This document shows, in pieces, positions 5,217 through 37,995 of a stretch of DNA of 39,497 nucleotides (within the stretch, counting starts at the first letter, position 1; every line of letters starts with the position of its first letter). A program made the position numbers and the translations under genes. This DNA comes from a virus (Duplodnaviria > Heunggongvirae > Uroviricota > Caudoviricetes). The notes beneath the pieces were generated by a model. The model was not told where the DNA came from. It searched no databases and saw only the letters and a list, made by a program, of their open reading frames with translations. Where the stretch lies: the IMG/VR virus record IMGVR_UViG_2778261536_000006. The stretch is one strand, 5' to 3'.

Positions 5217-5909
5217 TTAATTATGTCTCTTAAGGGTTTGCGACTGACTGATTAAGACCTTTCCAAAGACCATGAATCGGTGTTCGTTTTCGCTAGTAAT
5301 TCCCCATTCACGGTAAATCTGGTTATCAGAAATCACCAGCAGTTTGTCAGGAATCATTTGAAGTCTTTTAACGTATATTTTGTCATCAAAACCAAAGACA
5401 TATATACCATCACCATCAAACTGATTGATGCTGACATCAACGAAGATGAGATCTCCTGGCTCAATGGTTGGACACATACTGTCCCCACGAACGTTGATAA
5501 CTTTGATGTGATTGGCTGGTCGTCCGCCGAACATTGATACAGCATTATCAGTTCTGTATTCGATGGCATGAATCACATCAATGACATCACCGCCCTGGAT
5601 AAGGCCATTTCCCGCACTGGCACTGATATCCAACATTTCAATACGGAACACATCCTTCACCTGCGCAACATCCTCATCATTACTGTTTTTATATACAGTA
5701 TTACTTTTGAGGGCAGAGGTAAAGAGATCAGCAATATCAACACCTAAGCTCTTGGCAATATTACTCAGTGTTTGTTCGGTAAATTGTTTCTGCTTACCCG
5801 TTTCTAAGCGCGAGATGTTCGCCGCATCTACTCCTATTGCTTCAGCGAGATCGGCGATTTTCATGTTCTTCGCTTGGCGAAGTTGTCTGACTCGTTTTCC
5901 TATGTTCAT
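5217..5909 (-). CDS. CI-like phage repressor (HTH-XRE plus S24 LexA-like peptidase domain)
   Basis: 230 aa; N-terminal HTH and C-terminal S24 motifs (GDSM...KRL); divergent from the Cro-like gene. Confidence 0.85.
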   Translation of the reverse strand: MNIGKRVRQLRQAKNMKIADLAEAIGVDAANISRLETGKQKQFTEQTLSNIAKSLGVDIADLFTSALKSNTVYKNSNDEDVAQVKDVFRIEMLDISASAGNGLIQGGDVIDVIHAIEYRTDNAVSMFGGRPANHIKVINVRGDSMCPTIEPGDLIFVDVSINQFDGDGIYVFGFDDKIYVKRLQMIPDKLLVISDNQIYREWGITSENEHRFMVFGKVLISQSQTLKRHN

Positions 5910-6006: not shown

Positions 6007-6267
6007 ATGCAATCACCATTACGAAATGTGCGTAAGGCGCATGGTTTCACTTTGCAGCATGTTGCTGCGGGTGTTCAAGTCAATCCAGCGACGTTGAGTC
6101 GTATTGAGAGGCTGGAGCAGATTCCATCTATCGAGCTTGCAGAACGTTTAGCCAATTTTTTTAAGGGTGAAATCAGCGAAATGCAGATTCTTTATCCGGC
6201 ACGTTTTCAATCTAGCCAAAACCAGAATGGGTTTAAACCACAGGAACAGGAGGTGAACCGTGGGTAA
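6007..6267 (+). CDS. Cro-like HTH (XRE family) regulator
   Basis: 86 aa with N-terminal HTH; divergent from repressor; GGAGG 4 nt upstream. Confidence 0.7.
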   Translation: MQSPLRNVRKAHGFTLQHVAAGVQVNPATLSRIERLEQIPSIELAERLANFFKGEISEMQILYPARFQSSQNQNGFKPQEQEVNRG

Positions 6268-6811
6268 GCATCACTGGAAAATAGAAAAACAGCCTGAGTG
6301 GTACGTGAAAGCTGTCAGAAAAACTATCGCGGCGTTGCCGGGTGGTTACGCTGAAGCGGCTGATTGGCTCGATGTAACAGAAAACGCTTTATTCAACCGC
6401 CTTCGTGCAGATGGCGATCAGATTTTCCCGCTGGGATGGGCAATGGTTTTACAGCGTGCTGGTGGCACTCACTTCATTGCTGATGCTGTGGCGCAGTCTG
6501 CAAATGGCGTATTTGTGTCTCTTCCTGACATCGAGGATGTGGACAACGCCGATATCAACCAACGCCTGCTGGAGGTCATTGAACAGATCGGCAGTTATTC
6601 AAAACAGATTCGTTCAGCAATTGAAGACGGTGTAGTGGAACCGCATGAGAAGACAGCAATTAACGATGAGCTGTACCTCTCAATTTCGAAGCTGCAGGAG
6701 CATGCAGCACTGGTCTACAAAATCTTTTGCGTTTCAGAAAGTAGTGACGCCCGCGAGTGTGCAGCTCCGGGCGCCGTGGCGTGTCGTGACTGTGGAGAAA
6801 CTAACGCATGA
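6260..6811 (+). CDS. Putative lysogeny/early regulatory protein (CII-like position)
   Basis: 183 aa, GTG start with AGGAGG 6 nt upstream, immediately after cro; family assignment tentative. Confidence 0.4.
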
Positions 6812-7146
6812 ACAGTTTAACAACACACTACCGTCGCTCGCAACTGATTGCGCTTCCTGTACCGGGTGGAAAAGCGAAGGTGGAGTATTGCTATGCAGTA
6901 AATGTACCAGGTGACAGGGTAATTGTAACCCACAGCTTTGCAGAGTGGGCTGTGGGTGATTTCAACCGGCAAAAGGAGACAGTCCTTTGCGACAAGTTAA
7001 CCGCTGGTTCAAAGATCACTACGGAGTGCCCGTCAGAGTCATTCGTTGGGAGCCGGAAACACAACGGGTTATCTACCTCCGTGAAGGCTATGAGCATGAG
7101 TGCTTCAGCCCGCTCGAACAGTTTCGTCGTAAATTCAGGGAAATAG
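6808..7146 (+). CDS. Hypothetical ORF, uncertain (possible frameshifted gene)
   Basis: 112-aa track ORF with a Ser-rich, low-complexity C-terminal half; an alternative TTG-start ORF 6987-7166 in another frame looks more protein-like. Confidence 0.2.
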
Positions 7147-7155
7147 AGGTCGGTC

Positions 7156-8097
7156 ATGAGCACTAAATTAACCGGCTATGTATGGGATGGTTGCGCAGCG
7201 TCAGGCATGAAATTATCCAGCGTGGCAATTATGGCCCGCCTGGCTGATTTCAGTAATGACGAAGGTGTGTGCTGGCCATCAATTGAAACCATTGCCCGCC
7301 AGATTGGCGCGGGGATGAGTACCGTCAGAACGGCTATCGCACGGCTGGAAGCAGAAGGCTGGTTAACGCGTAAGGCGCGTCGCCAGGGTAACCGCAATGC
7401 GTCGAATGTTTATCAGCTTAACGTTGCGAAGCTTCAGGCAGCGGCATTTTCTCAACTGTCAGATTCTGACCCGTCAAAATCTGACGCATCAAAATCTGAC
7501 CCGTCAAAATTTGATGCGTCGAAATCTGGCAAAAAAGCGGGTTTTCACCCGTCAGAATCTGGCGGGGATCCGTCAGTAAAATCAAAACATGATCCGTCAG
7601 ATAAAAAACCTTCTCGTCCGGACGCTTCGCAACCGGACACGCAGACGGATGAACAGGATTTTTTAACTCGCCATCCTGATGCGGTTGTATTCAGCCCTAA
7701 AAAGCGCCAGTGGGGAACGCAGGATGATTTGACCTGCGCACAGTGGCTCTGGAAAAAAATCATCGCCCTGTACGAGCAGGCTGCCGAATGTGACGGCGAG
7801 GTGGTTCGTCCCAAAGAACCGAACTGGACAGCCTGGGCAAACGAAATTCGCCTGATGTGTGTGCAGGATGGTCGTACTCACAAACAAATCTGCGAGATGT
7901 ACAGCCGCGTCAGCCGCGATCCGTTCTGGTGCCGTAACGTGCTCAGCCCGTCGAAGTTGCGGGAAAAATGGGATGAGCTTTCCCTGCGCTTATCACCGTC
8001 CGTCAGCACGTACACCGAAAAACGCGAAGACCCGTACTTCAAATCCAGTTACGACAACGTGGACTACAGCCAGATCCCGGCAGGATTCAGGGGGTGA
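7156..8097 (+). CDS. Replication initiator (O-like, winged-HTH N-terminus) containing origin iterons
   Basis: 313 aa; HTH-like N-terminal domain; repeat-rich linker encoded by tandem DNA repeats; position after cro/cII as in lambdoid replication modules. Confidence 0.6.
   Translation: MSTKLTGYVWDGCAASGMKLSSVAIMARLADFSNDEGVCWPSIETIARQIGAGMSTVRTAIARLEAEGWLTRKARRQGNRNASNVYQLNVAKLQAAAFSQLSDSDPSKSDASKSDPSKFDASKSGKKAGFHPSESGGDPSVKSKHDPSDKKPSRPDASQPDTQTDEQDFLTRHPDAVVFSPKKRQWGTQDDLTCAQWLWKKIIALYEQAAECDGEVVRPKEPNWTAWANEIRLMCVQDGRTHKQICEMYSRVSRDPFWCRNVLSPSKLREKWDELSLRLSPSVSTYTEKREDPYFKSSYDNVDYSQIPAGFRG
7465..7606 (+). repeat. Iteron array (putative ori) inside the replication initiator gene
   Basis: Four tandem 15-bp units TCTGAC(C/G)C(G/A)TCAAAA at 7465-7524, then a degenerate unit and three spaced CCGTCAG copies to about 7606. 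Confidence 0.55.
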
Positions 8098-8099
8098 TC

Positions 8100-8588
8100 A
8101 TGAGTCTTTTGAATGAAGTTCAGAAATTCATTGAAGCCCATCCGGGGTGTACTTCCGGAGACATTGCGGATGCTTTTGCAGGTTACTCACGGCAGCGCGT
8201 TCTGCAGTCAGCAAGCAAGTTACGTCAGAGTGGGCGTGTGGCTCACCGTTGTGAAGGAGATACACGCAGACATTTCTCGCGCCTGACTGAGAGAGCGCAG
8301 GAGCCGGAACCACAACCAGTTCGTGAAACCAGACCTGTGCGCAATTTCTATGTTGGCACTAACGACCCGCAGGTGATTTTGTGCCTGACTCGCCAGGCGG
8401 AAGAACTGGAGTCCAGGGGCTTATACCGTCGAGCTGCAACGGTGTGGATGGAGGCATTCCGTGAAAGCCACTCCCAGCCAGAACGAAACAATTTTCTGGC
8501 GCATCGTGAGCGGTGCTTACGGAAAAGCAGCAAGCGCGCTGCATCGGGTGAAGAGTGGTATCTGTCAGGGAATTACGTGGGGGCTTAA
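8100..8588 (+). CDS. PerC-family transcriptional regulator-like protein
   Basis: C-terminal AEELESRGLYRRAATVWMEAF resembles the PerC motif; ATG at 8100 with GGGGG 5 nt upstream (track starts at GTG 8094). Confidence 0.45.
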   Translation: MSLLNEVQKFIEAHPGCTSGDIADAFAGYSRQRVLQSASKLRQSGRVAHRCEGDTRRHFSRLTERAQEPEPQPVRETRPVRNFYVGTNDPQVILCLTRQAEELESRGLYRRAATVWMEAFRESHSQPERNNFLAHRERCLRKSSKRAASGEEWYLSGNYVGA

Positions 8589-9241
8589 TGAGTAATAAAT
8601 ATTGCCAGGCGCTGGTGGAACTGCGGAACAAACCAGCCCATGAACTGAAGGAAGTGGGCGATCAGTGGCGCACGCCGGACAACATTTTCTGGGGAATTAA
8701 CACCCTGTTTGGCCCGTTTGTTCTGGATCTGTTCACCGACGGTGATAACGCCAAATGTGCCGCGTATTACACGGCGGAAGACAACGCGCTGGCGCATGAC
8801 TGGTCAGAACGTCTTGCGGAGCTTAAAGGTGCTGCCTTTGGTAATCCCCCATACAGCCGCGCCAGTAAGCATGAGGGGCAATACATCACCGGCATGCGTT
8901 ACATCATGAAACATGCCAGTGCCATGCGTGATAAGGGCGGGCGCTATGTTTTCCTGATCAAAGCTGCCACCAGCGAAGTGTGGTGGCCGGAAGATGCAGA
9001 CCATATTGCTTTTATTCGCGGGCGTATTGGTTTTGAACTGCCTGCCTGGTTTATCCCGAAAGACGAGAAGCAGGTGCCGACAGGCGCTTTCTTCGCTGGT
9101 GCTATTGCTGTTTTCGATAAGACCTGGAAGGGACCGGCAATCAGCTACATCGGGCGCGATGAACTTGAGGCATGTGGTGAGGCGTTTCTGGCGCAGGTTC
9201 GCCAGCAGGCGGAAAAACTGGTCAGGGAGATGGCGGCATGA
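8588..9241 (+). CDS. Phage Dam-like N6-adenine DNA methyltransferase
   Basis: NPPY catalytic motif (FGNPPYS); start taken at ATG 8588, which overlaps the upstream stop. Confidence 0.75.
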   Translation: MSNKYCQALVELRNKPAHELKEVGDQWRTPDNIFWGINTLFGPFVLDLFTDGDNAKCAAYYTAEDNALAHDWSERLAELKGAAFGNPPYSRASKHEGQYITGMRYIMKHASAMRDKGGRYVFLIKAATSEVWWPEDADHIAFIRGRIGFELPAWFIPKDEKQVPTGAFFAGAIAVFDKTWKGPAISYIGRDELEACGEAFLAQVRQQAEKLVREMAA

Positions 9242-9564
9242 CGACGTTAACTCAATGCCAGCAGCAGGTGCTGGATATGCTGATTTCTTATCAGAAAGAA
9301 CGTGGCTTCCCGCCAACCAATCAGGAGGTGGCAACCATGCTGGGATACCGTTCAGTGAATGCAGCGGTGGAGCATCTTCGCGCACTGGAGAAAAAAGGCG
9401 TCATCACGATAAAGCGTGGCGTGGCCCGGGGCATCACGCTTCATACCGCGGTGAAGGACGACGACAGCGAGGCGGTCGGGATTATCCGCGCACTGCTTGC
9501 CGGTGAGGCAAACGCCAGGCTGCGTGCAGCCCACTGGTTACATGAGAGGGGCCTGAAAGTATGA
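9238..9564 (+). CDS. LexA DNA-binding-domain-like protein (no peptidase domain)
   Basis: 108 aa; LTQCQQQVLDML...GFPPTNQEVA...RSVNAAVEHLRALEKKGVI parallels the LexA N-terminal winged helix; ORF ends before any S24 domain. Confidence 0.55.
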   Translation: MTTLTQCQQQVLDMLISYQKERGFPPTNQEVATMLGYRSVNAAVEHLRALEKKGVITIKRGVARGITLHTAVKDDDSEAVGIIRALLAGEANARLRAAHWLHERGLKV

Positions 9565-9950
9565 AGCTAATACTGCCTTTTCCGCCCAGCGTGAACACGT
9601 ACTGGCGACACCCCAACAAAGGGGCGCTTGCAGGTAAGAGCCTGATAAGCGCGGCGGGGCGAAAATTCCAGAGCGCAGCGTGTGCAGCCATCATTGAGCA
9701 GTTACGTCGTCTGCCGAAACCAACGTCGGCACCAGCTTCAGTGGAGATCGTGTTGTTTCCTCCGGATAACCGGCTTCGCGATCTGGACAACTATAACAAG
9801 GCGCTGTTTGACGCCCTGACCCACGCGGGTGTGTGGGTGGACGACAGCCAGGTGAAAAGAATGCTGGTGGAGTGGGGGCCGGTTATCCCGGAAGGGAAGG
9901 TCGAAATCACTATCAGTAAGTACGAGAAAACGGCGGGTGCAGCCGCCTGA
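9561..9950 (+). CDS. rusA: RusA-family Holliday junction resolvase
   Basis: 129 aa with LPFPPSVNTYWRH and DLDNYNKALFDALT motifs characteristic of RusA. Confidence 0.8.
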   Translation: MKLILPFPPSVNTYWRHPNKGALAGKSLISAAGRKFQSAACAAIIEQLRRLPKPTSAPASVEIVLFPPDNRLRDLDNYNKALFDALTHAGVWVDDSQVKRMLVEWGPVIPEGKVEITISKYEKTAGAAA

Positions 9951-9969
9951 TTAAGAGGAGAAACGAAGT

Positions 9970-10780: not shown

Positions 10781-11776
10781 GTGACCGTGAGAGCACTACT
10801 GACCCCTGAAATAGCCCCGCGTATGGGGATTGTATTGTTCAGACCAGGTTCAGAGCTGATGCCCCTGTTTATGCAGGGGCGTGTCCTGCTGGAGCCTGAG
10901 CCGGAACGTTATTCATCTTTCGCCAGTGGTGCCGTTCCGGCGGCATCACAACCGCTGGCGGATGATCCTGCCGTTAGGGCCGTGTTCCGCAATGAGGCAG
11001 TGATCCGTCGTGCTGGTGGCGTGGAATGTCTTGAAAGCTGGTTACTTCGTGAAAAAGGCTGCCAGTGGCCTCATTCCGACTGGCACAGCGAGAACATGAC
11101 CACAATGCGACACGCGCCGGGCGCGATCCGTCTGTGCTGGCACTGCGATAACCAGCTGCGCGATCAGTTCACGGAACGGCTGGAATCAATGGCAACGGAT
11201 AACTGTGCCCGCTGGGTGTTGTCTGTAGTCCGTCTGGATCTCGGTTTTGATGATAACCATGCCGTGACAATGCCGGAACTGTGCTGGTGGCTGATTCGTA
11301 ATGACCTGGCGGATGCCTTACCGGAAAGTGCAGCCCGTAAGGCACTGAGATTACCGAAGCCTGTTGTGCCGTCTGTCACCCGGGAAAGTGACCTTGTGCC
11401 TTCGGTTCCTGCCACCAGCATCATCCAGGATAAGGCGAAAAAGGTGCTGGCGCTGAAAGTGGATCCGGAGTCGCCGGAGTCTTTTATGTTACGCCCAAAA
11501 CGCCGCCGCTGGGTTAATGAAAAGTACACGCGCTGGGTTAAGACACAGCCGTGTGCATGTTGTGGAAAGCCTGCTGATGATCCCCACCACCTGATAGGCC
11601 ACGGTCAGGGTGGAATGGGTACAAAAGCGCATGACCTCTTTGTGTTGCCTTTGTGCAGAAAGCATCACGACGAGCTGCATGCGGATACCGTGGCATTTGA
11701 AGAGAAGTATGGCTCTCAGCTGGAGCTGATATTTCGTTTTATCGATCGTGCGCTGGCAATTGGCGTATTGGCGTAA
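10781..11776 (+). CDS. DUF968 (YdfU-like) protein with C-terminal HNH-like Cys/His motif
   Basis: 331 aa; C-terminal CACCGKPADDPHH...CRKHHDELH; typical position between nin-region genes and Q; GTG start. Confidence 0.6.
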   Translation: MTVRALLTPEIAPRMGIVLFRPGSELMPLFMQGRVLLEPEPERYSSFASGAVPAASQPLADDPAVRAVFRNEAVIRRAGGVECLESWLLREKGCQWPHSDWHSENMTTMRHAPGAIRLCWHCDNQLRDQFTERLESMATDNCARWVLSVVRLDLGFDDNHAVTMPELCWWLIRNDLADALPESAARKALRLPKPVVPSVTRESDLVPSVPATSIIQDKAKKVLALKVDPESPESFMLRPKRRRWVNEKYTRWVKTQPCACCGKPADDPHHLIGHGQGGMGTKAHDLFVLPLCRKHHDELHADTVAFEEKYGSQLELIFRFIDRALAIGVLA

Positions 11777-11789
11777 GTGGAGAACGAGC

Positions 11790-12542
11790 ATGAACCTTGA
11801 AGCCTTACCAAAATATTACTCCCCAAAATCTCCAAAATTGAGCGATGACGCACCGGCGACAGGCTCAGGTGGTTTAACGATTACGGATGTGATGGCTGCG
11901 CAGGGGATGGTGCAGTCGAAAGCACCGCTTGGGTTTGCCTTATTCCTGGCAAAAGTTGGTGTTCAGGATCCTCAATTTGCGATTGAAGGTCTGCTCAATT
12001 ACGCGATGGCACTGGATAACCCGACATTGAACAAATTGAGTGAAGAAACCCGGTTACAGATCATCCCTTACCTTGTGAATTTTGCCTTTGCTGATTATTC
12101 CAGGTCTGCGGCAAGTAAGGCTCGCTGTGAGCATTGTGCTGGTACTGGATTTCATAATGTATTGCGCGAAGTGGTGAAACACTCCAGAAGCGGGGAATCT
12201 GTTATCAAGGAAGAGTGGGTGAAGGAACTATGTCAGCATTGTCATGGTAAGGGAGAAGTCAGCACAGCGTGCAGAGGGTGTAAGGGTAAAGGTATTGTCC
12301 TGGATGAAAAAAGGACCCGGCTTCATGGCACGCCTGTTTATAAGATTTGTGGGCGTTGCAATGGAAACCGGTTTAGCCGTTTACCAACCACACTGGCGCG
12401 GCATCATGTCCAGAAGCTGGTACCAGACCTGACGGATTATCAGTGGTACAAAGGATATGCAGATGTCATTGATAAACTGGTTACAAAGTGCTGGCAGGAA
12501 GAAGCATATGCAGAGATACAATTGAGAAAGGTGACAAGATAA
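11790..12542 (+). CDS. Late-gene antiterminator Q-like protein
   Basis: Four CxxC zinc-finger-like motifs and close resemblance to Qin-prophage QuuQ as I recall it; start at ATG 11790 with GGAG upstream (track ORF starts earlier). Confidence 0.7.
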   Translation: MNLEALPKYYSPKSPKLSDDAPATGSGGLTITDVMAAQGMVQSKAPLGFALFLAKVGVQDPQFAIEGLLNYAMALDNPTLNKLSEETRLQIIPYLVNFAFADYSRSAASKARCEHCAGTGFHNVLREVVKHSRSGESVIKEEWVKELCQHCHGKGEVSTACRGCKGKGIVLDEKRTRLHGTPVYKICGRCNGNRFSRLPTTLARHHVQKLVPDLTDYQWYKGYADVIDKLVTKCWQEEAYAEIQLRKVTR

Positions 12543-13148: not shown

Positions 13149-14201
13149 ATGAAAAATACTGTAAAAATAAACAGTGTTGATTTAATCAACGCTGATTGCC
13201 TGCATTTTATTCAGTCCCTGCCTGATGATTCCATTGACCTGATTGTTACCGATCCGCCTTACTTCAAGGTGAAACCTAACGGTTGGGACAATCAGTGGAA
13301 AGGGGATGAAGATTACCTTAAGTGGCTGGACCACTGTCTGGCCCAGTTCTGGCGGGTGTTGAAACCTGCCGGAAGCCTTTACCTGTTCTGTGGGCATCGC
13401 CTAGCATCTGATATTGAGATCATGATGCGTGAACGTTTCAACGTGCTTAACCATATCATCTGGGCGAAGCCGTCCGGACGTTGGAATGGGTGTAATAAAG
13501 AAAGTCTGCGCGCATATTTTCCTGCCACAGAGCGCGTTCTGTTTGCTGAACATTACCAGGGGCCATATCGCGGCAAAAGTGACGGCTATGCGGCAAAAGA
13601 AAGGGAACTCAAACAGCACATAATGGCACCGCTGATATCGTATTTCAGGGATGCTCGTGCCGAACTGGGTATAACGGCAAAACAAATTGCCGAAGCCACA
13701 GGTAAGAAAAATATGGTTTCCCACTGGTTTGGTGCCAGTCAGTGGCAGTTGCCGAATGAGGCTGACTATCGGAAGTTACAGGCACTGTTTTCCCGTATAG
13801 CGGCAGAGAAGTTTCAGGAACAACAACTGGAACAACCACACCACCAGCTGGTGGCATCTTATGATTCACTGAATCGTAAATATTCTGAATTGCTGGATGA
13901 GTTTAAATCTCTCCGGCGCTATTTCTCCGTATCAGTCTCCGTGCCTTATACCGATGTCTGGATGCATAAACCCGTTCAGTTCTACCCGGGGAAACATCCG
14001 TGTGAGAAACCGGCGGATATGCTCAGGCAAATAATCAATGCCAGTAGTCGACCAGGTGATCTGGTTGCTGATTTTTTTATGGGATCCGGTTCCACAATAA
14101 AAGCAGCAATGGCGCTGGGGCGTCGGGCCTTAGGTGTTGAGCTTGAGTCAGAGCGGTTTAATCAGACAGTGAAAGAGATAAACGAGCTGGTGGGGAAATA
14201 A
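13149..14201 (+). CDS. DNA methyltransferase (N6-adenine/N4-cytosine, beta-class)
   Basis: 350 aa with N-terminal DPPY catalytic motif and C-terminal AdoMet-binding FMGSGST. Confidence 0.8.
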   Translation: MKNTVKINSVDLINADCLHFIQSLPDDSIDLIVTDPPYFKVKPNGWDNQWKGDEDYLKWLDHCLAQFWRVLKPAGSLYLFCGHRLASDIEIMMRERFNVLNHIIWAKPSGRWNGCNKESLRAYFPATERVLFAEHYQGPYRGKSDGYAAKERELKQHIMAPLISYFRDARAELGITAKQIAEATGKKNMVSHWFGASQWQLPNEADYRKLQALFSRIAAEKFQEQQLEQPHHQLVASYDSLNRKYSELLDEFKSLRRYFSVSVSVPYTDVWMHKPVQFYPGKHPCEKPADMLRQIINASSRPGDLVADFFMGSGSTIKAAMALGRRALGVELESERFNQTVKEINELVGK

Positions 14202-36587: not shown

Positions 36588-36836
36588 TTAGTGAACAAAC
36601 CACTCGTCAGCAGATTCCCAGGTATCTTTCAGAGTCTCCTGAACAAAAGTTTTTGCAGAATCCTTATCTGCGGTGCGTGTAACAGAAAGGCCATCGTTGC
36701 TGGTGGCTTTTACGATCACCTCTACATCGTCATAACGTTTACTGATGCGTCGGGTTAATTCTTCCTTTAACGCATCCACAGCACCGGTTGGCATTTTAGT
36801 CATTTTTTCTTTGGCTATGCAGATTTCAATACGCAT
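36588..36836 (-). CDS. DinI-family protein
   Basis: 82 aa starting [11 protein letters not shown] with C-terminal [16 protein letters not shown], closely resembling DinI; two SOS boxes upstream. Confidence 0.75.
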
Positions 36837-36849
36837 AAAAGTCCCTCTA

Positions 36850-36901
36850 TACTGTGTTTGTATACAGTATTATTTTTAACTGTATAGATAAACAGTGTCA
36901 A
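36850..36901 (-). promoter_or_regulatory. Tandem LexA (SOS) boxes overlapping a promoter for the DinI-like gene
   Basis: TACTGTGTTTGTATACAGTA (36850-36869) and AACTGTATAGATAAACAGTG (36878-36897), both CTGT-N8-ACAG; minus-strand TTGACA at 36896-36901 with an A/T-rich -10 about 17 bp downstream. Confidence 0.7.
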
Positions 36902-37995
36902 GAGGCCTTATTTCTGCTCCTTTGGAGCTCTTCAAAACGATTATGTAAAGATTTCGGATACAGTTCGGTATATACCTGCCATAGCACGTTTAATGAACGA
37001 TGCCCTGTAACCTGGGCGACTTCCTCAATACTAAAACCAGCCTCAAATAAGCGACTTGCCCCTTCTCTACGCAAATCATGGTATCGCAGATCTTTAATAC
37101 CTAATTTGCTTCTTACCCTCTGGAATCCCGCAGTAACAGAAGTGCTGTTATATGGAAAAATGAATTCTGATTTTTTGGGTTGTCGTTGGACGATATCCCA
37201 GGCTTCCCCAAGCAAGGCTACTTTCATATGGTTGCCTTCCTTTTTACGTGGATCTTTCCTGTCTCTTACGAGTATGGATTTTTGTTCCTGATCGAGATCC
37301 TCCCATCGTAATCGGCATACTTCACCGATTCGCATACATGACCACACAGAAAATTTGAGGATATCAACGAACGGAATTTTTGAGCATTTATGTGTAGATC
37401 GTTGTTGAAGACCTTCAATGAGCATGTCCAGTTCATCAGATGCCGGTCTACGATTACGACGATTTGATTTACCAATTAAACCAAGTTTAAGTAGATATGG
37501 ACGAGCGGCTTTTGCTGGGTTTGATGTGTAATTAATTCCATATACAGGTTTGGCAGCATCCAGAACACTGCCAAGATAACTAACATCGTGGCTAACTGTA
37601 GCTGGACCTGCACCAGCGTTGTTTCTTAGCCTGCAATGTTCAATTACGTCATTTTCTGTCAGTTCAGATAGTTTGATCGCGGAGATGTCACTATCCATAA
37701 GCAGTTCCAGCACATATCTTTTAGTACGGCCTGCTTTACCTCCGGCATTTGGGTCATTTAAATATTTGTGTAGTAAGTCACGGACTGTAAGTCCGTCAAC
37801 TGCATTTGATGATGGAATGCCATATAGATCTAATTCCATCACTTTCTGTGTGCCCCATGTTTTGGCATGAGCATGTTTAGGGAATGTTTTACTTTCCCTG
37901 TAAGTGATAACACCTTTTTCTTTGATAATCACATTACAGCGATAGCGTGGTGTGCCATCGGATTTTAGTCGTTTCTCTATGTTATAGTACGCCAT
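36898..37995 (-). CDS. Tyrosine integrase (DusA-associated type)
   Basis: 365 aa with C-terminal tyrosine-recombinase motifs; start is 88 bp from the dusA start codon, transcribed divergently. Confidence 0.85.
   Translation of the reverse strand: MAYYNIEKRLKSDGTPRYRCNVIIKEKGVITYRESKTFPKHAHAKTWGTQKVMELDLYGIPSSNAVDGLTVRDLLHKYLNDPNAGGKAGRTKRYVLELLMDSDISAIKLSELTENDVIEHCRLRNNAGAGPATVSHDVSYLGSVLDAAKPVYGINYTSNPAKAARPYLLKLGLIGKSNRRNRRPASDELDMLIEGLQQRSTHKCSKIPFVDILKFSVWSCMRIGEVCRLRWEDLDQEQKSILVRDRKDPRKKEGNHMKVALLGEAWDIVQRQPKKSEFIFPYNSTSVTAGFQRVRSKLGIKDLRYHDLRREGASRLFEAGFSIEEVAQVTGHRSLNVLWQVYTELYPKSLHNRFEELQRSRNKAS

Follow-up and report, generated by a model that had tools for sequence, protein, structure and literature searches.

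A stand-alone LexA-type DNA-binding protein with a helical tail, encoded between Dam and RusA in an SfV/e14-like temperate phage

The closest characterised analogue of the protein described here is gp6 of GIL01, a tectivirus of Bacillus thuringiensis (Fornelos et al. 2018). This protein of 66 aa is a truncated LexA homologue, which binds the non-SOS palindrome GaCACAnnTGTGaC and activates the late promoter P3 (PMC6182141). In GIL01, an SOS-controlled early promoter makes this LexA-like late regulator. E. coli LexA itself contacts DNA through S39, N41, A42, E44 and E45 (PMC3091678). Its N-terminal domain, when free or cleaved, is still capable of (partial) SOS-box binding and of repression, and removal of the fragment by ClpXP is needed for SOS induction (PMC10584840).

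The gene analysed here lies on a window of 39,497 nucleotides from the IMG/VR virus record IMGVR_UViG_2778261536_000006, which represents an SfV/e14-like temperate phage. Like gp6, its product (the LexA-like protein) is phage-encoded and is essentially a LexA winged helix without the S24 domain, and the gene likewise belongs to an early operon, in a temperate phage that can be induced by SOS. The gene as such is known from annotations and gene tables. In the searched full-text literature it appears only in such tables, for example as Stx-phage pham 237, and no experimental or functional study of the family was found there. For phage 1720a-02, which has the gene too, a 'bully phage' paper ascribed the interference to Cro.

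A LexA-type winged helix, its reading head and its tail

The LexA-like gene, an ORF on the + strand (9238..9564), starts with ATG, has 108 codons and encodes a stand-alone LexA-type DNA-binding protein of 108 aa. The original prediction had compared it to the N-terminal winged helix of LexA and had suggested a search against the LexA DNA-binding profile. In this search, residues 1-65 matched all 65 positions of PF01726 (LexA_DNA_bind; E 2.9e-19) with a score of 69 bits, well above the gathering threshold of 23.7. The lexA equivalog model TIGR00498 of NCBIfam was matched at its positions 1-91 of 203, with a score of 70.7 bits that is below the whole-protein cut-off of 110.95. Among sequences with PDB entries, phmmer retrieved E. 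coli LexA (1lea, 1jhh, 3jso) at about 1e-15, and the winged-helix part is about 50% identical to that protein. An AF2 model built from an alignment of 34 homologues reached a pLDDT of 83.8, and its winged helix superimposed on LexA (1lea/3jso) with 1.0-1.3 Å rmsd. In this model, residues 1-70 (9238..9447, + strand) form the helices H6-22 and H28-35, the recognition helix H40-52 and the wing strands 56-58 and 66-68. Given the profile, phmmer and model matches, the domain, which is complete within residues 1-68, is LexA's own and not that of an unrelated winged-helix family; proteins of the BlaI/MecI, PadR and MarR-like type were found among the weak structural matches. No match to Peptidase_S24 was obtained for the 108-aa protein in the Pfam search, and the chain ends at residue 108 with rusA next. 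Since it has no S24 domain, the LexA-like protein cannot autocleave, as had been proposed.

To the LexA domain a tail of two amphipathic helices is added (residues 75-102; 9460..9543, + strand), H75-87 and H93-102, with the turn A88-G89-E90 between them. Both helices were modelled confidently (block pLDDT 87-88), and the tail stands in place of the LexA linker, cleavage site and S24 domain. A structure search returned no counterpart of the tail in LexA or in any PDB entry. Across the 34 homologues, which are 34-98% identical, hydrophobic residues are kept at positions 79, 80, 82, 83, 86, 87, 93, 97, 98, 100 and 101, and A97 is invariant. The protein is thereby not a plain truncation of LexA but carries a conserved module of its own. 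Its amphipathicity, together with the analogy to small winged-helix repressors, suggests that the tail dimerises, and it may be regarded as a putative dimerisation or partner-binding module.

Residues 39-45 of the protein (LexA numbering) are S39, V40, N41, A42, A43, V44 and E45, so that four of the five LexA contact residues are kept (S39, N41, A42 and E45) and E44 is replaced by V. In the family, represented by 34 diverse members, S39 and N41 are invariant and E44 is retained in none, while position 45 is E in 19 members, D in seven and otherwise L, I, G or A. Subfamilies in which E45 is replaced occur in Cronobacter, Atlantibacter, Klebsiella and some Salmonella and Citrobacter. Depending on the subfamily, positions 42-45 read AAVE, AAAE, GAFE, AATD, AAND, AVLL, TVFI or TIAG. 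As far as is known, the enterobacterial hosts of all these subfamilies use the same SOS box. Because E44 is never kept and E45 varies although the hosts share one box, the family as a whole is not conserved as a mimic of LexA at SOS boxes, for which an unchanged reading head would be expected; to judge from the sequences, the diversification of positions 42-45 looks more like a divergence of phage-specific operators than like LexA mimicry. For the E. coli subfamily the situation is different. With the residues S-H-K-T-A-H-R in its reading head, gp6 recognises another operator, which makes the retention of the LexA head in the LexA-like protein informative, and occupancy of SOS boxes by the protein of this subfamily is plausible. 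As the free N-terminal domain of LexA represses, a stable copy that cannot be cleaved would be expected to do so as well.

Family distribution and genomic context

The LexA-like protein belongs to PHROG 362 ('transcriptional repressor'), with residues 1-108 aligned to positions 1-106 of the 106-position profile (E 4.2e-59), a family that PGAP names 'LexA family transcriptional regulator'. An identical gene (100%) is present in phage vB_EcoM-720R4, where it is annotated as 'LexA-like protein', and genes of 95-100% identity are found at the same nin-region position in the phages SfV (orf42), SfII, SfIV, mEp460, cdtI, Stx2c, Stx2a_1447 and 1720a-02. Members of PHROG 362 reside in prophages of E. 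coli, Shigella, Salmonella, Citrobacter, Cronobacter and Klebsiella. More distant relatives were sought among 1.8 billion representative proteins, all of which were scanned, and by profile search. Full-length relatives of 105-130 aa, 34-66% identical and all composed of PF01726 and the tail, were recovered from Citrobacter, Salmonella, Cronobacter, Klebsiella, Raoultella, Kosakonia and Atlantibacter; for the Klebsiella protein, a match to PHROG 362 was likewise obtained. When the peptide pattern HLRAL[EQ][RK]KG was searched on genome contigs, the matches came mainly from other Proteobacteria and spanned approximately residues 1-90, and these are presumably host lexA genes. Only the top locus of this contig scan (L206, from Atlantibacter) matched over the whole protein and was counted as a family member.

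Among complete E. coli genomes, 2233 of 5426 contain the gene, in up to four copies per genome. Over 81 distinct alleles, its pN/pS is 0.089, the values being 0.023 for residues 1-70 and 0.19 for the tail. This strong purifying selection shows that it is a working gene and not debris.

In the window, the gene is placed between those for a Dam N6-adenine methyltransferase (8555..9241, + strand; PF05869, E 1e-45) and a RusA resolvase (9561..9950, + strand; PF05866, E 1e-14). The TGA of dam and the ATG of the LexA-like gene share bases (ATGA), and the stop codon of the latter overlaps the ATG of rusA, so that the gene is apparently translationally coupled to both neighbours. The wider order begins with the leftward cI gene (5217..5909, - strand), the cro region, a CII-like gene (YmfL homologue), a YmfM homologue, and the genes for a replication protein, a PerC-like protein and Dam. 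After Dam follow the LexA-like gene, rusA, a KilA-N gene, a DUF968/YdfU gene assigned by Pfam and PHROG (PHROG 96; 10781..11776, + strand), the Q antiterminator gene (11748-12542), an N6_N4 methylase gene, and the lysis and structural genes. In a consensus scan, no promoter-like site was scored directly 5' of the LexA-like gene on its own strand; the only sites on the + strand, at 9951 and 12853, are both downstream of it. Several weak terminator-like sites are present on the + strand between cro and Q, none of them near the gene. Its position in the rightward early operon, the overlaps with dam and rusA and the lack of a promoter-like site directly upstream indicate that the LexA-like protein is probably a product of the lytic phase and not a lysogeny repressor. 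It would be a delayed-early protein, made once CI is inactivated or upon infection but not in the lysogen. The idea, which had also been put forward, that it acts as a dominant regulator of induction is therefore unlikely with regard to the lysogen, as the gene sits between Dam and RusA inside this rightward operon.

Cronobacter prophages have a matching order with PerC, Dam, the LexA-like protein, RusA, ANT, DUF968 and Q. In Klebsiella, the homologue lies 3' of an SOS-boxed dinI gene of the same orientation and of a small ORF; DUF968, a Q-like gene and the lysis genes come after the homologue. DUF968, with Q behind it, is the only neighbour that stays constant between E. coli, Cronobacter and Klebsiella.

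SOS boxes and possible roles of the protein

The window harbors four perfect SOS boxes (CTGT-N8-ACAG), compared to 0.44 expected, and this count was reached by none of 100 shuffled sequences. When spacings of 0-20 between CTGT and ACAG were scanned in both orientations, N8 was the only spacing of the CTGT...ACAG arrangement that was enriched to this degree. Excesses of ACAG-N8-CTGT and ACAG-N12-CTGT were considered as alternative sites and discarded, as they stem from matches in G+C-rich coding sequence or from the tandem dinI boxes. Two of the boxes (36852-36867 and 36880-36895) are upstream of a dinI-like gene (36591..36836, - strand; PF06183, E 1e-19). These two are certainly of the host-LexA type; the record of VT1-Sakai lists the homologous position as a LexA site. 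The third box, TACTGTTTTTATATACAGTA (5683..5698), is located in the part of cI that codes for the linker, and agrees at 18 of 20 positions with the SOS-box consensus. This cI gene encodes a RecA-cleavable lysogeny repressor with HTH_3 and Peptidase_S24 domains. The fourth box (13159..13174) is downstream of Q, where it covers codons 4-9 of the gene for the N6_N4 DNA methylase, and some relatives have an extra box between rusA and the KilA-N gene. All four boxes of the window are candidate targets of the LexA-like protein.

The original prediction had proposed a layered coupling of the prophage to the host SOS response. This part of it stands as far as the four perfect boxes, the S24-type CI and the SOS-boxed dinI homologue are concerned, but the link between the gene and the boxes is inseparable from module linkage. 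The LexA-like gene was present in all 13 phage records with the SOS-boxed cI allele, in 27 of 28 with the SOS-boxed methylase and in all five with the SOS-boxed region upstream of KilA-N. Among IMG/VR loci with the cI box, 52 of 59 carry the gene, at variable distances. The DUF968 allele 1.2 kb downstream (at least 95% identity), which was used as linkage control, proved to be almost equally tied to the LexA-like gene, and the co-occurrence may therefore be plain linkage of modules. Furthermore, phage phiNP keeps the methylase box without the LexA-like gene, and the dinI module is widespread in phages that lack it. In view of this comparable linkage, of phiNP and of the dinI modules, the co-occurrence was rejected as independent evidence. 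DUF968 alleles also occur without the LexA-like gene. In Cronobacter loci with the matching gene order, no perfect SOS box was found within 6 kb on either side of the gene.

The explanation that we favour, tentatively and at somewhat less than an even chance, is that the LexA-like protein is a RecA-proof surrogate of LexA at CTGT-type operators. As the sequence suggests, it would be a winged-helix DNA binder beyond the reach of RecA inactivation, with the short amphipathic two-helix tail supplying dimerisation. The ...VAA end of the cleaved LexA N-terminal fragment is a ClpX signal that targets it to ClpXP. The LexA-like protein has no such C-terminal end and would hence not be targeted in this way. 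Read with the rightward early (nin-region) operon, it would appear after CI inactivation or upon infection and could bind CTGT-type palindromes, both the SOS-type boxes in host DNA and those of the phage itself (dinI, cI and the late methylase). At a time when the LexA of the host undergoes cleavage, it might act there as a repressor or roadblock, so that SOS-controlled promoters would be silenced again and the phage would be helped to commit to lysis. We infer dimerisation via the tail, the actual operator, the repressive outcome and the timing of expression. Confidence is limited by the diversification of the reading head, the Cronobacter loci without boxes, the linkage of the modules and the indirect argument for dimerisation.

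A bolder version of this explanation is that the prophage surrogate, proof against RecA and evading ClpXP, re-occupies SOS boxes throughout the genome during lytic growth. This would shut down the SOS regulon of the host as well as antirepressors or colicins of competitors that are under LexA control, and the boxes in the cI coding sequence and in the late region of the phage would lock it into lysis. Taken jointly, these steps are speculative, and we would put the chance that they hold at about one in four.

A different role, which is unlikely but deserves serious attention, is that of a phage-specific transcription factor with a LexA-derived fold and an operator of its own, related to the SOS box or not. 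Such a factor may be an activator and might act, for example, on a promoter that serves late functions or the KilA-N, DUF968 and Q genes further downstream. For this role gp6 is a precedent, and the recognition-helix positions 42-45 diversify in the manner of phage immunity specificities, with E44 lost throughout the family. The context is also suggestive, as the place upstream of DUF968 and Q is kept in three genera, and the Klebsiella order of SOS box, dinI, LexA-like gene, DUF968, Q-like gene and lysis genes recalls the GIL01 logic. On the other hand, the reading head of the E. coli subfamily is nearly that of LexA, and late transcription in these phages is already served by the Q antiterminator. 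Scans of the window and of the Cronobacter and Klebsiella loci for an alternative operator yielded no interpretable or other conserved palindrome, which also argues against a private site.

The tight placement between Dam and RusA, with its apparent translational coupling, could alternatively reflect a function in DNA metabolism. The protein would then be a binder or adaptor that works with Dam, RusA and the HNH-like DUF968 protein, and the exposed amphipathic tail, which has no known fold partner, would bind a partner protein; the conserved nearness to DUF968 is in line with this. We consider such a function improbable. The Klebsiella context lacks Dam and RusA, SfIV and Kati have other neighbours, and DUF968 alleles are found independently of the gene. 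Moreover, the invariant S39 and N41 and the strong constraint on the domain are as expected for sequence-specific recognition.

The Ala-Gly pair of the tail (A88-G89) aligns with the scissile A84-G85 of LexA, and the HMMER alignment extends to LexA residue 86, with 'LLAGE' placed over 'VAAGE'. This could point to a cleavable decoy, cut at Ala88-Gly89 in trans by the catalytic domains of LexA or CI, or competing for RecA*. Among the 34 family members, however, position 88 is A in only 20 and position 89 is G in 19, and the pairs AN, VG, ER, TR, AC, AE, AD, NG and NN occur as well. In the AF2 model, A88-G89 is found in a turn between two confident helices and not in a beta-strand loop. A conserved LexA-type cleavage site was rejected on these grounds and, as an S24 domain that could position the pair is also lacking, a decoy is highly improbable. 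That the gene is a decaying, functionless remnant of a captured lexA, as its resemblance to a truncated LexA might suggest, is refuted by the selection on its 81 alleles, by the intact length and tail kept in at least six genera at 34-98% identity and by its abundance in E. coli.

Significance and comparison with known systems

Taken together, the observation behind the original prediction was confirmed and its interpretation was partly supported. Prophage induction, Shiga-toxin release, mutagenesis and persistence are all under the control of SOS induction. Should the LexA-like protein bind SOS boxes, numerous E. coli, Shigella and Stx-phage lysogens would possess a LexA analogue that resists cleavage and comes on just when LexA is destroyed, and models of SOS output, Stx production and prophage competition would change. 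If boxes are re-occupied throughout the genome, the SOS circuit would have a second, phage-owned layer that was overlooked in about four of ten E. coli strains. If the protein has its own operator, it would be the second independent case, after gp6, of the LexA fold as a private phage regulator, and the subfamilies with diverged reading heads would provide a natural series for the evolution of winged-helix specificity. In both cases, this is an abundant and strongly conserved family that is amenable to simple assays.

The LexA-like protein shares its fold, about half of its residues in the winged helix and four of the five contact residues with E. coli LexA. It differs from LexA in lacking the S24 protease and dimerisation domain (Ser119, Lys156) and a conserved cleavage site, and has V at the positions of both P40 and E44. 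Its C-terminus is a helical tail that ends in ...GLKV, whereas the cleaved LexA fragment ends in ...VAA. A similar architecture, in which a winged helix is followed by short C-terminal helices that form the dimer, is known from BlaI/MecI, PadR and MarR-like proteins.

Although gp6 is the nearest characterised counterpart and the LexA-like protein may, by analogy, work like it, the protein is outside the gp6 family. BLASTP did not align the two at E <= 100, and the identity of 35% over 66 aa obtained with MAFFT arises through the shared LexA fold only. In contrast to gp6, which has no tail, the LexA-like protein has a conserved tail of 40 aa. Where gp6 has its deviating reading head, the LexA-like protein keeps N41, A42 and E45, and K38 of gp6 corresponds to N. 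The LexA-like protein is furthermore encoded by lambdoid phages that already possess Q, unlike gp6. The family is thus distinct from the known truncated LexA by its helical tail, by the near-intact LexA reading head of the E. coli subfamily and by its very high prevalence.

SOS boxes within cI and the methylase gene

The cI gene of the window (5217-5909, minus strand) contains, at 5681-5700, the near-consensus SOS box TACTGTTTTTATATACAGTA. The box maps to the linker that joins the HTH domain to the S24 domain and is covered by the codons N-T-V-Y-K-N-S-N. Among the related loci examined, the spacer of this box varied (Y, C or F codon) and its CTGT and ACAG arms were constant, and at least 120 IMG/VR stretches matched a pattern made from the box and its flank. 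The box might be a LexA roadblock within cI; alternatively, it might serve an internal promoter as its operator.

A perfect SOS box was also obtained at 13159-13174, spanning codons 4-9 of the N6_N4 DNA methylase gene (13149-14201), which lies just 3' of Q. Over its initial 32 nt, which take in the box, this gene is identical to its counterpart in Citrobacter phage phiNP, while overall the two methylase genes share only 84% identity. The LexA-like gene is absent from phiNP.

Neighbors of the LexA-like gene

Between rusA and the gene for the KilA-N-domain protein, the SOS box TACTGTATTTATGAACAGTG was found in 14 IMG/VR relatives and five phage records, among them L026 (box at 2006-2021), a related locus carrying the LexA-like gene, as well as SfIV and PhiR49_1. 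This suggests that a LexA-controlled, antirepressor-like gene adjoins the LexA-like gene in these relatives. In the window, the rusA/KilA-N gap is only 19 bp long and holds no SOS box. Across E. coli, Cronobacter and Klebsiella, the sole gene consistently located downstream of the LexA-like gene encodes DUF968/YdfU (PHROG 96, HNH-like; window 10781-11776), and where DUF968 alleles of at least 95% identity occurred, the LexA-like gene was almost always present too.

The Klebsiella subfamily

The Klebsiella subfamily protein has 130 aa and belongs to a 90%-identity cluster with 1017 member sequences. In the Klebsiella loci L002-L004 (5387-6393), a dinI gene that has a near-consensus SOS box is situated 600 bp upstream of the LexA-like gene. 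Both genes share one orientation, and the terminator scan scored no terminator-like site on the plus strand ahead of the LexA-like start. The Klebsiella LexA-like gene may itself be SOS-induced, despite the leucine that its reading head (the DNA-reading residues of the recognition helix) carries at the position of LexA's E45. Separately, four metagenomic proteins (P0131, P0133, P0151 and P0156) contain two tandem LexA_DNA_bind domains per polypeptide and lack an S24 domain.

Early operon and dinI-integrase region

The early operon of the window includes, within 6260-7146 and 8094-8588, a homologue of e14 YmfL, which matches the CII-type Pfam family Phage_CP76, a homologue of YmfM and a gene for a PerC-like regulator. 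According to a 2020 bioRxiv preprint, ymfM is an SOS-inducible filamentation gene.

The dinI-like and integrase genes occupy 36591-37995, with the integrase gene at 36898-37995 on the minus strand and the dinI-like gene directly downstream. As this pair stands at the window end, past the tail-fibre genes, the window appears to be the record of a phage or prophage in circularly permuted form. The same module of dinI and SOS box was found in 92 phage records, many of which are Stx1a and Stx2a phages.
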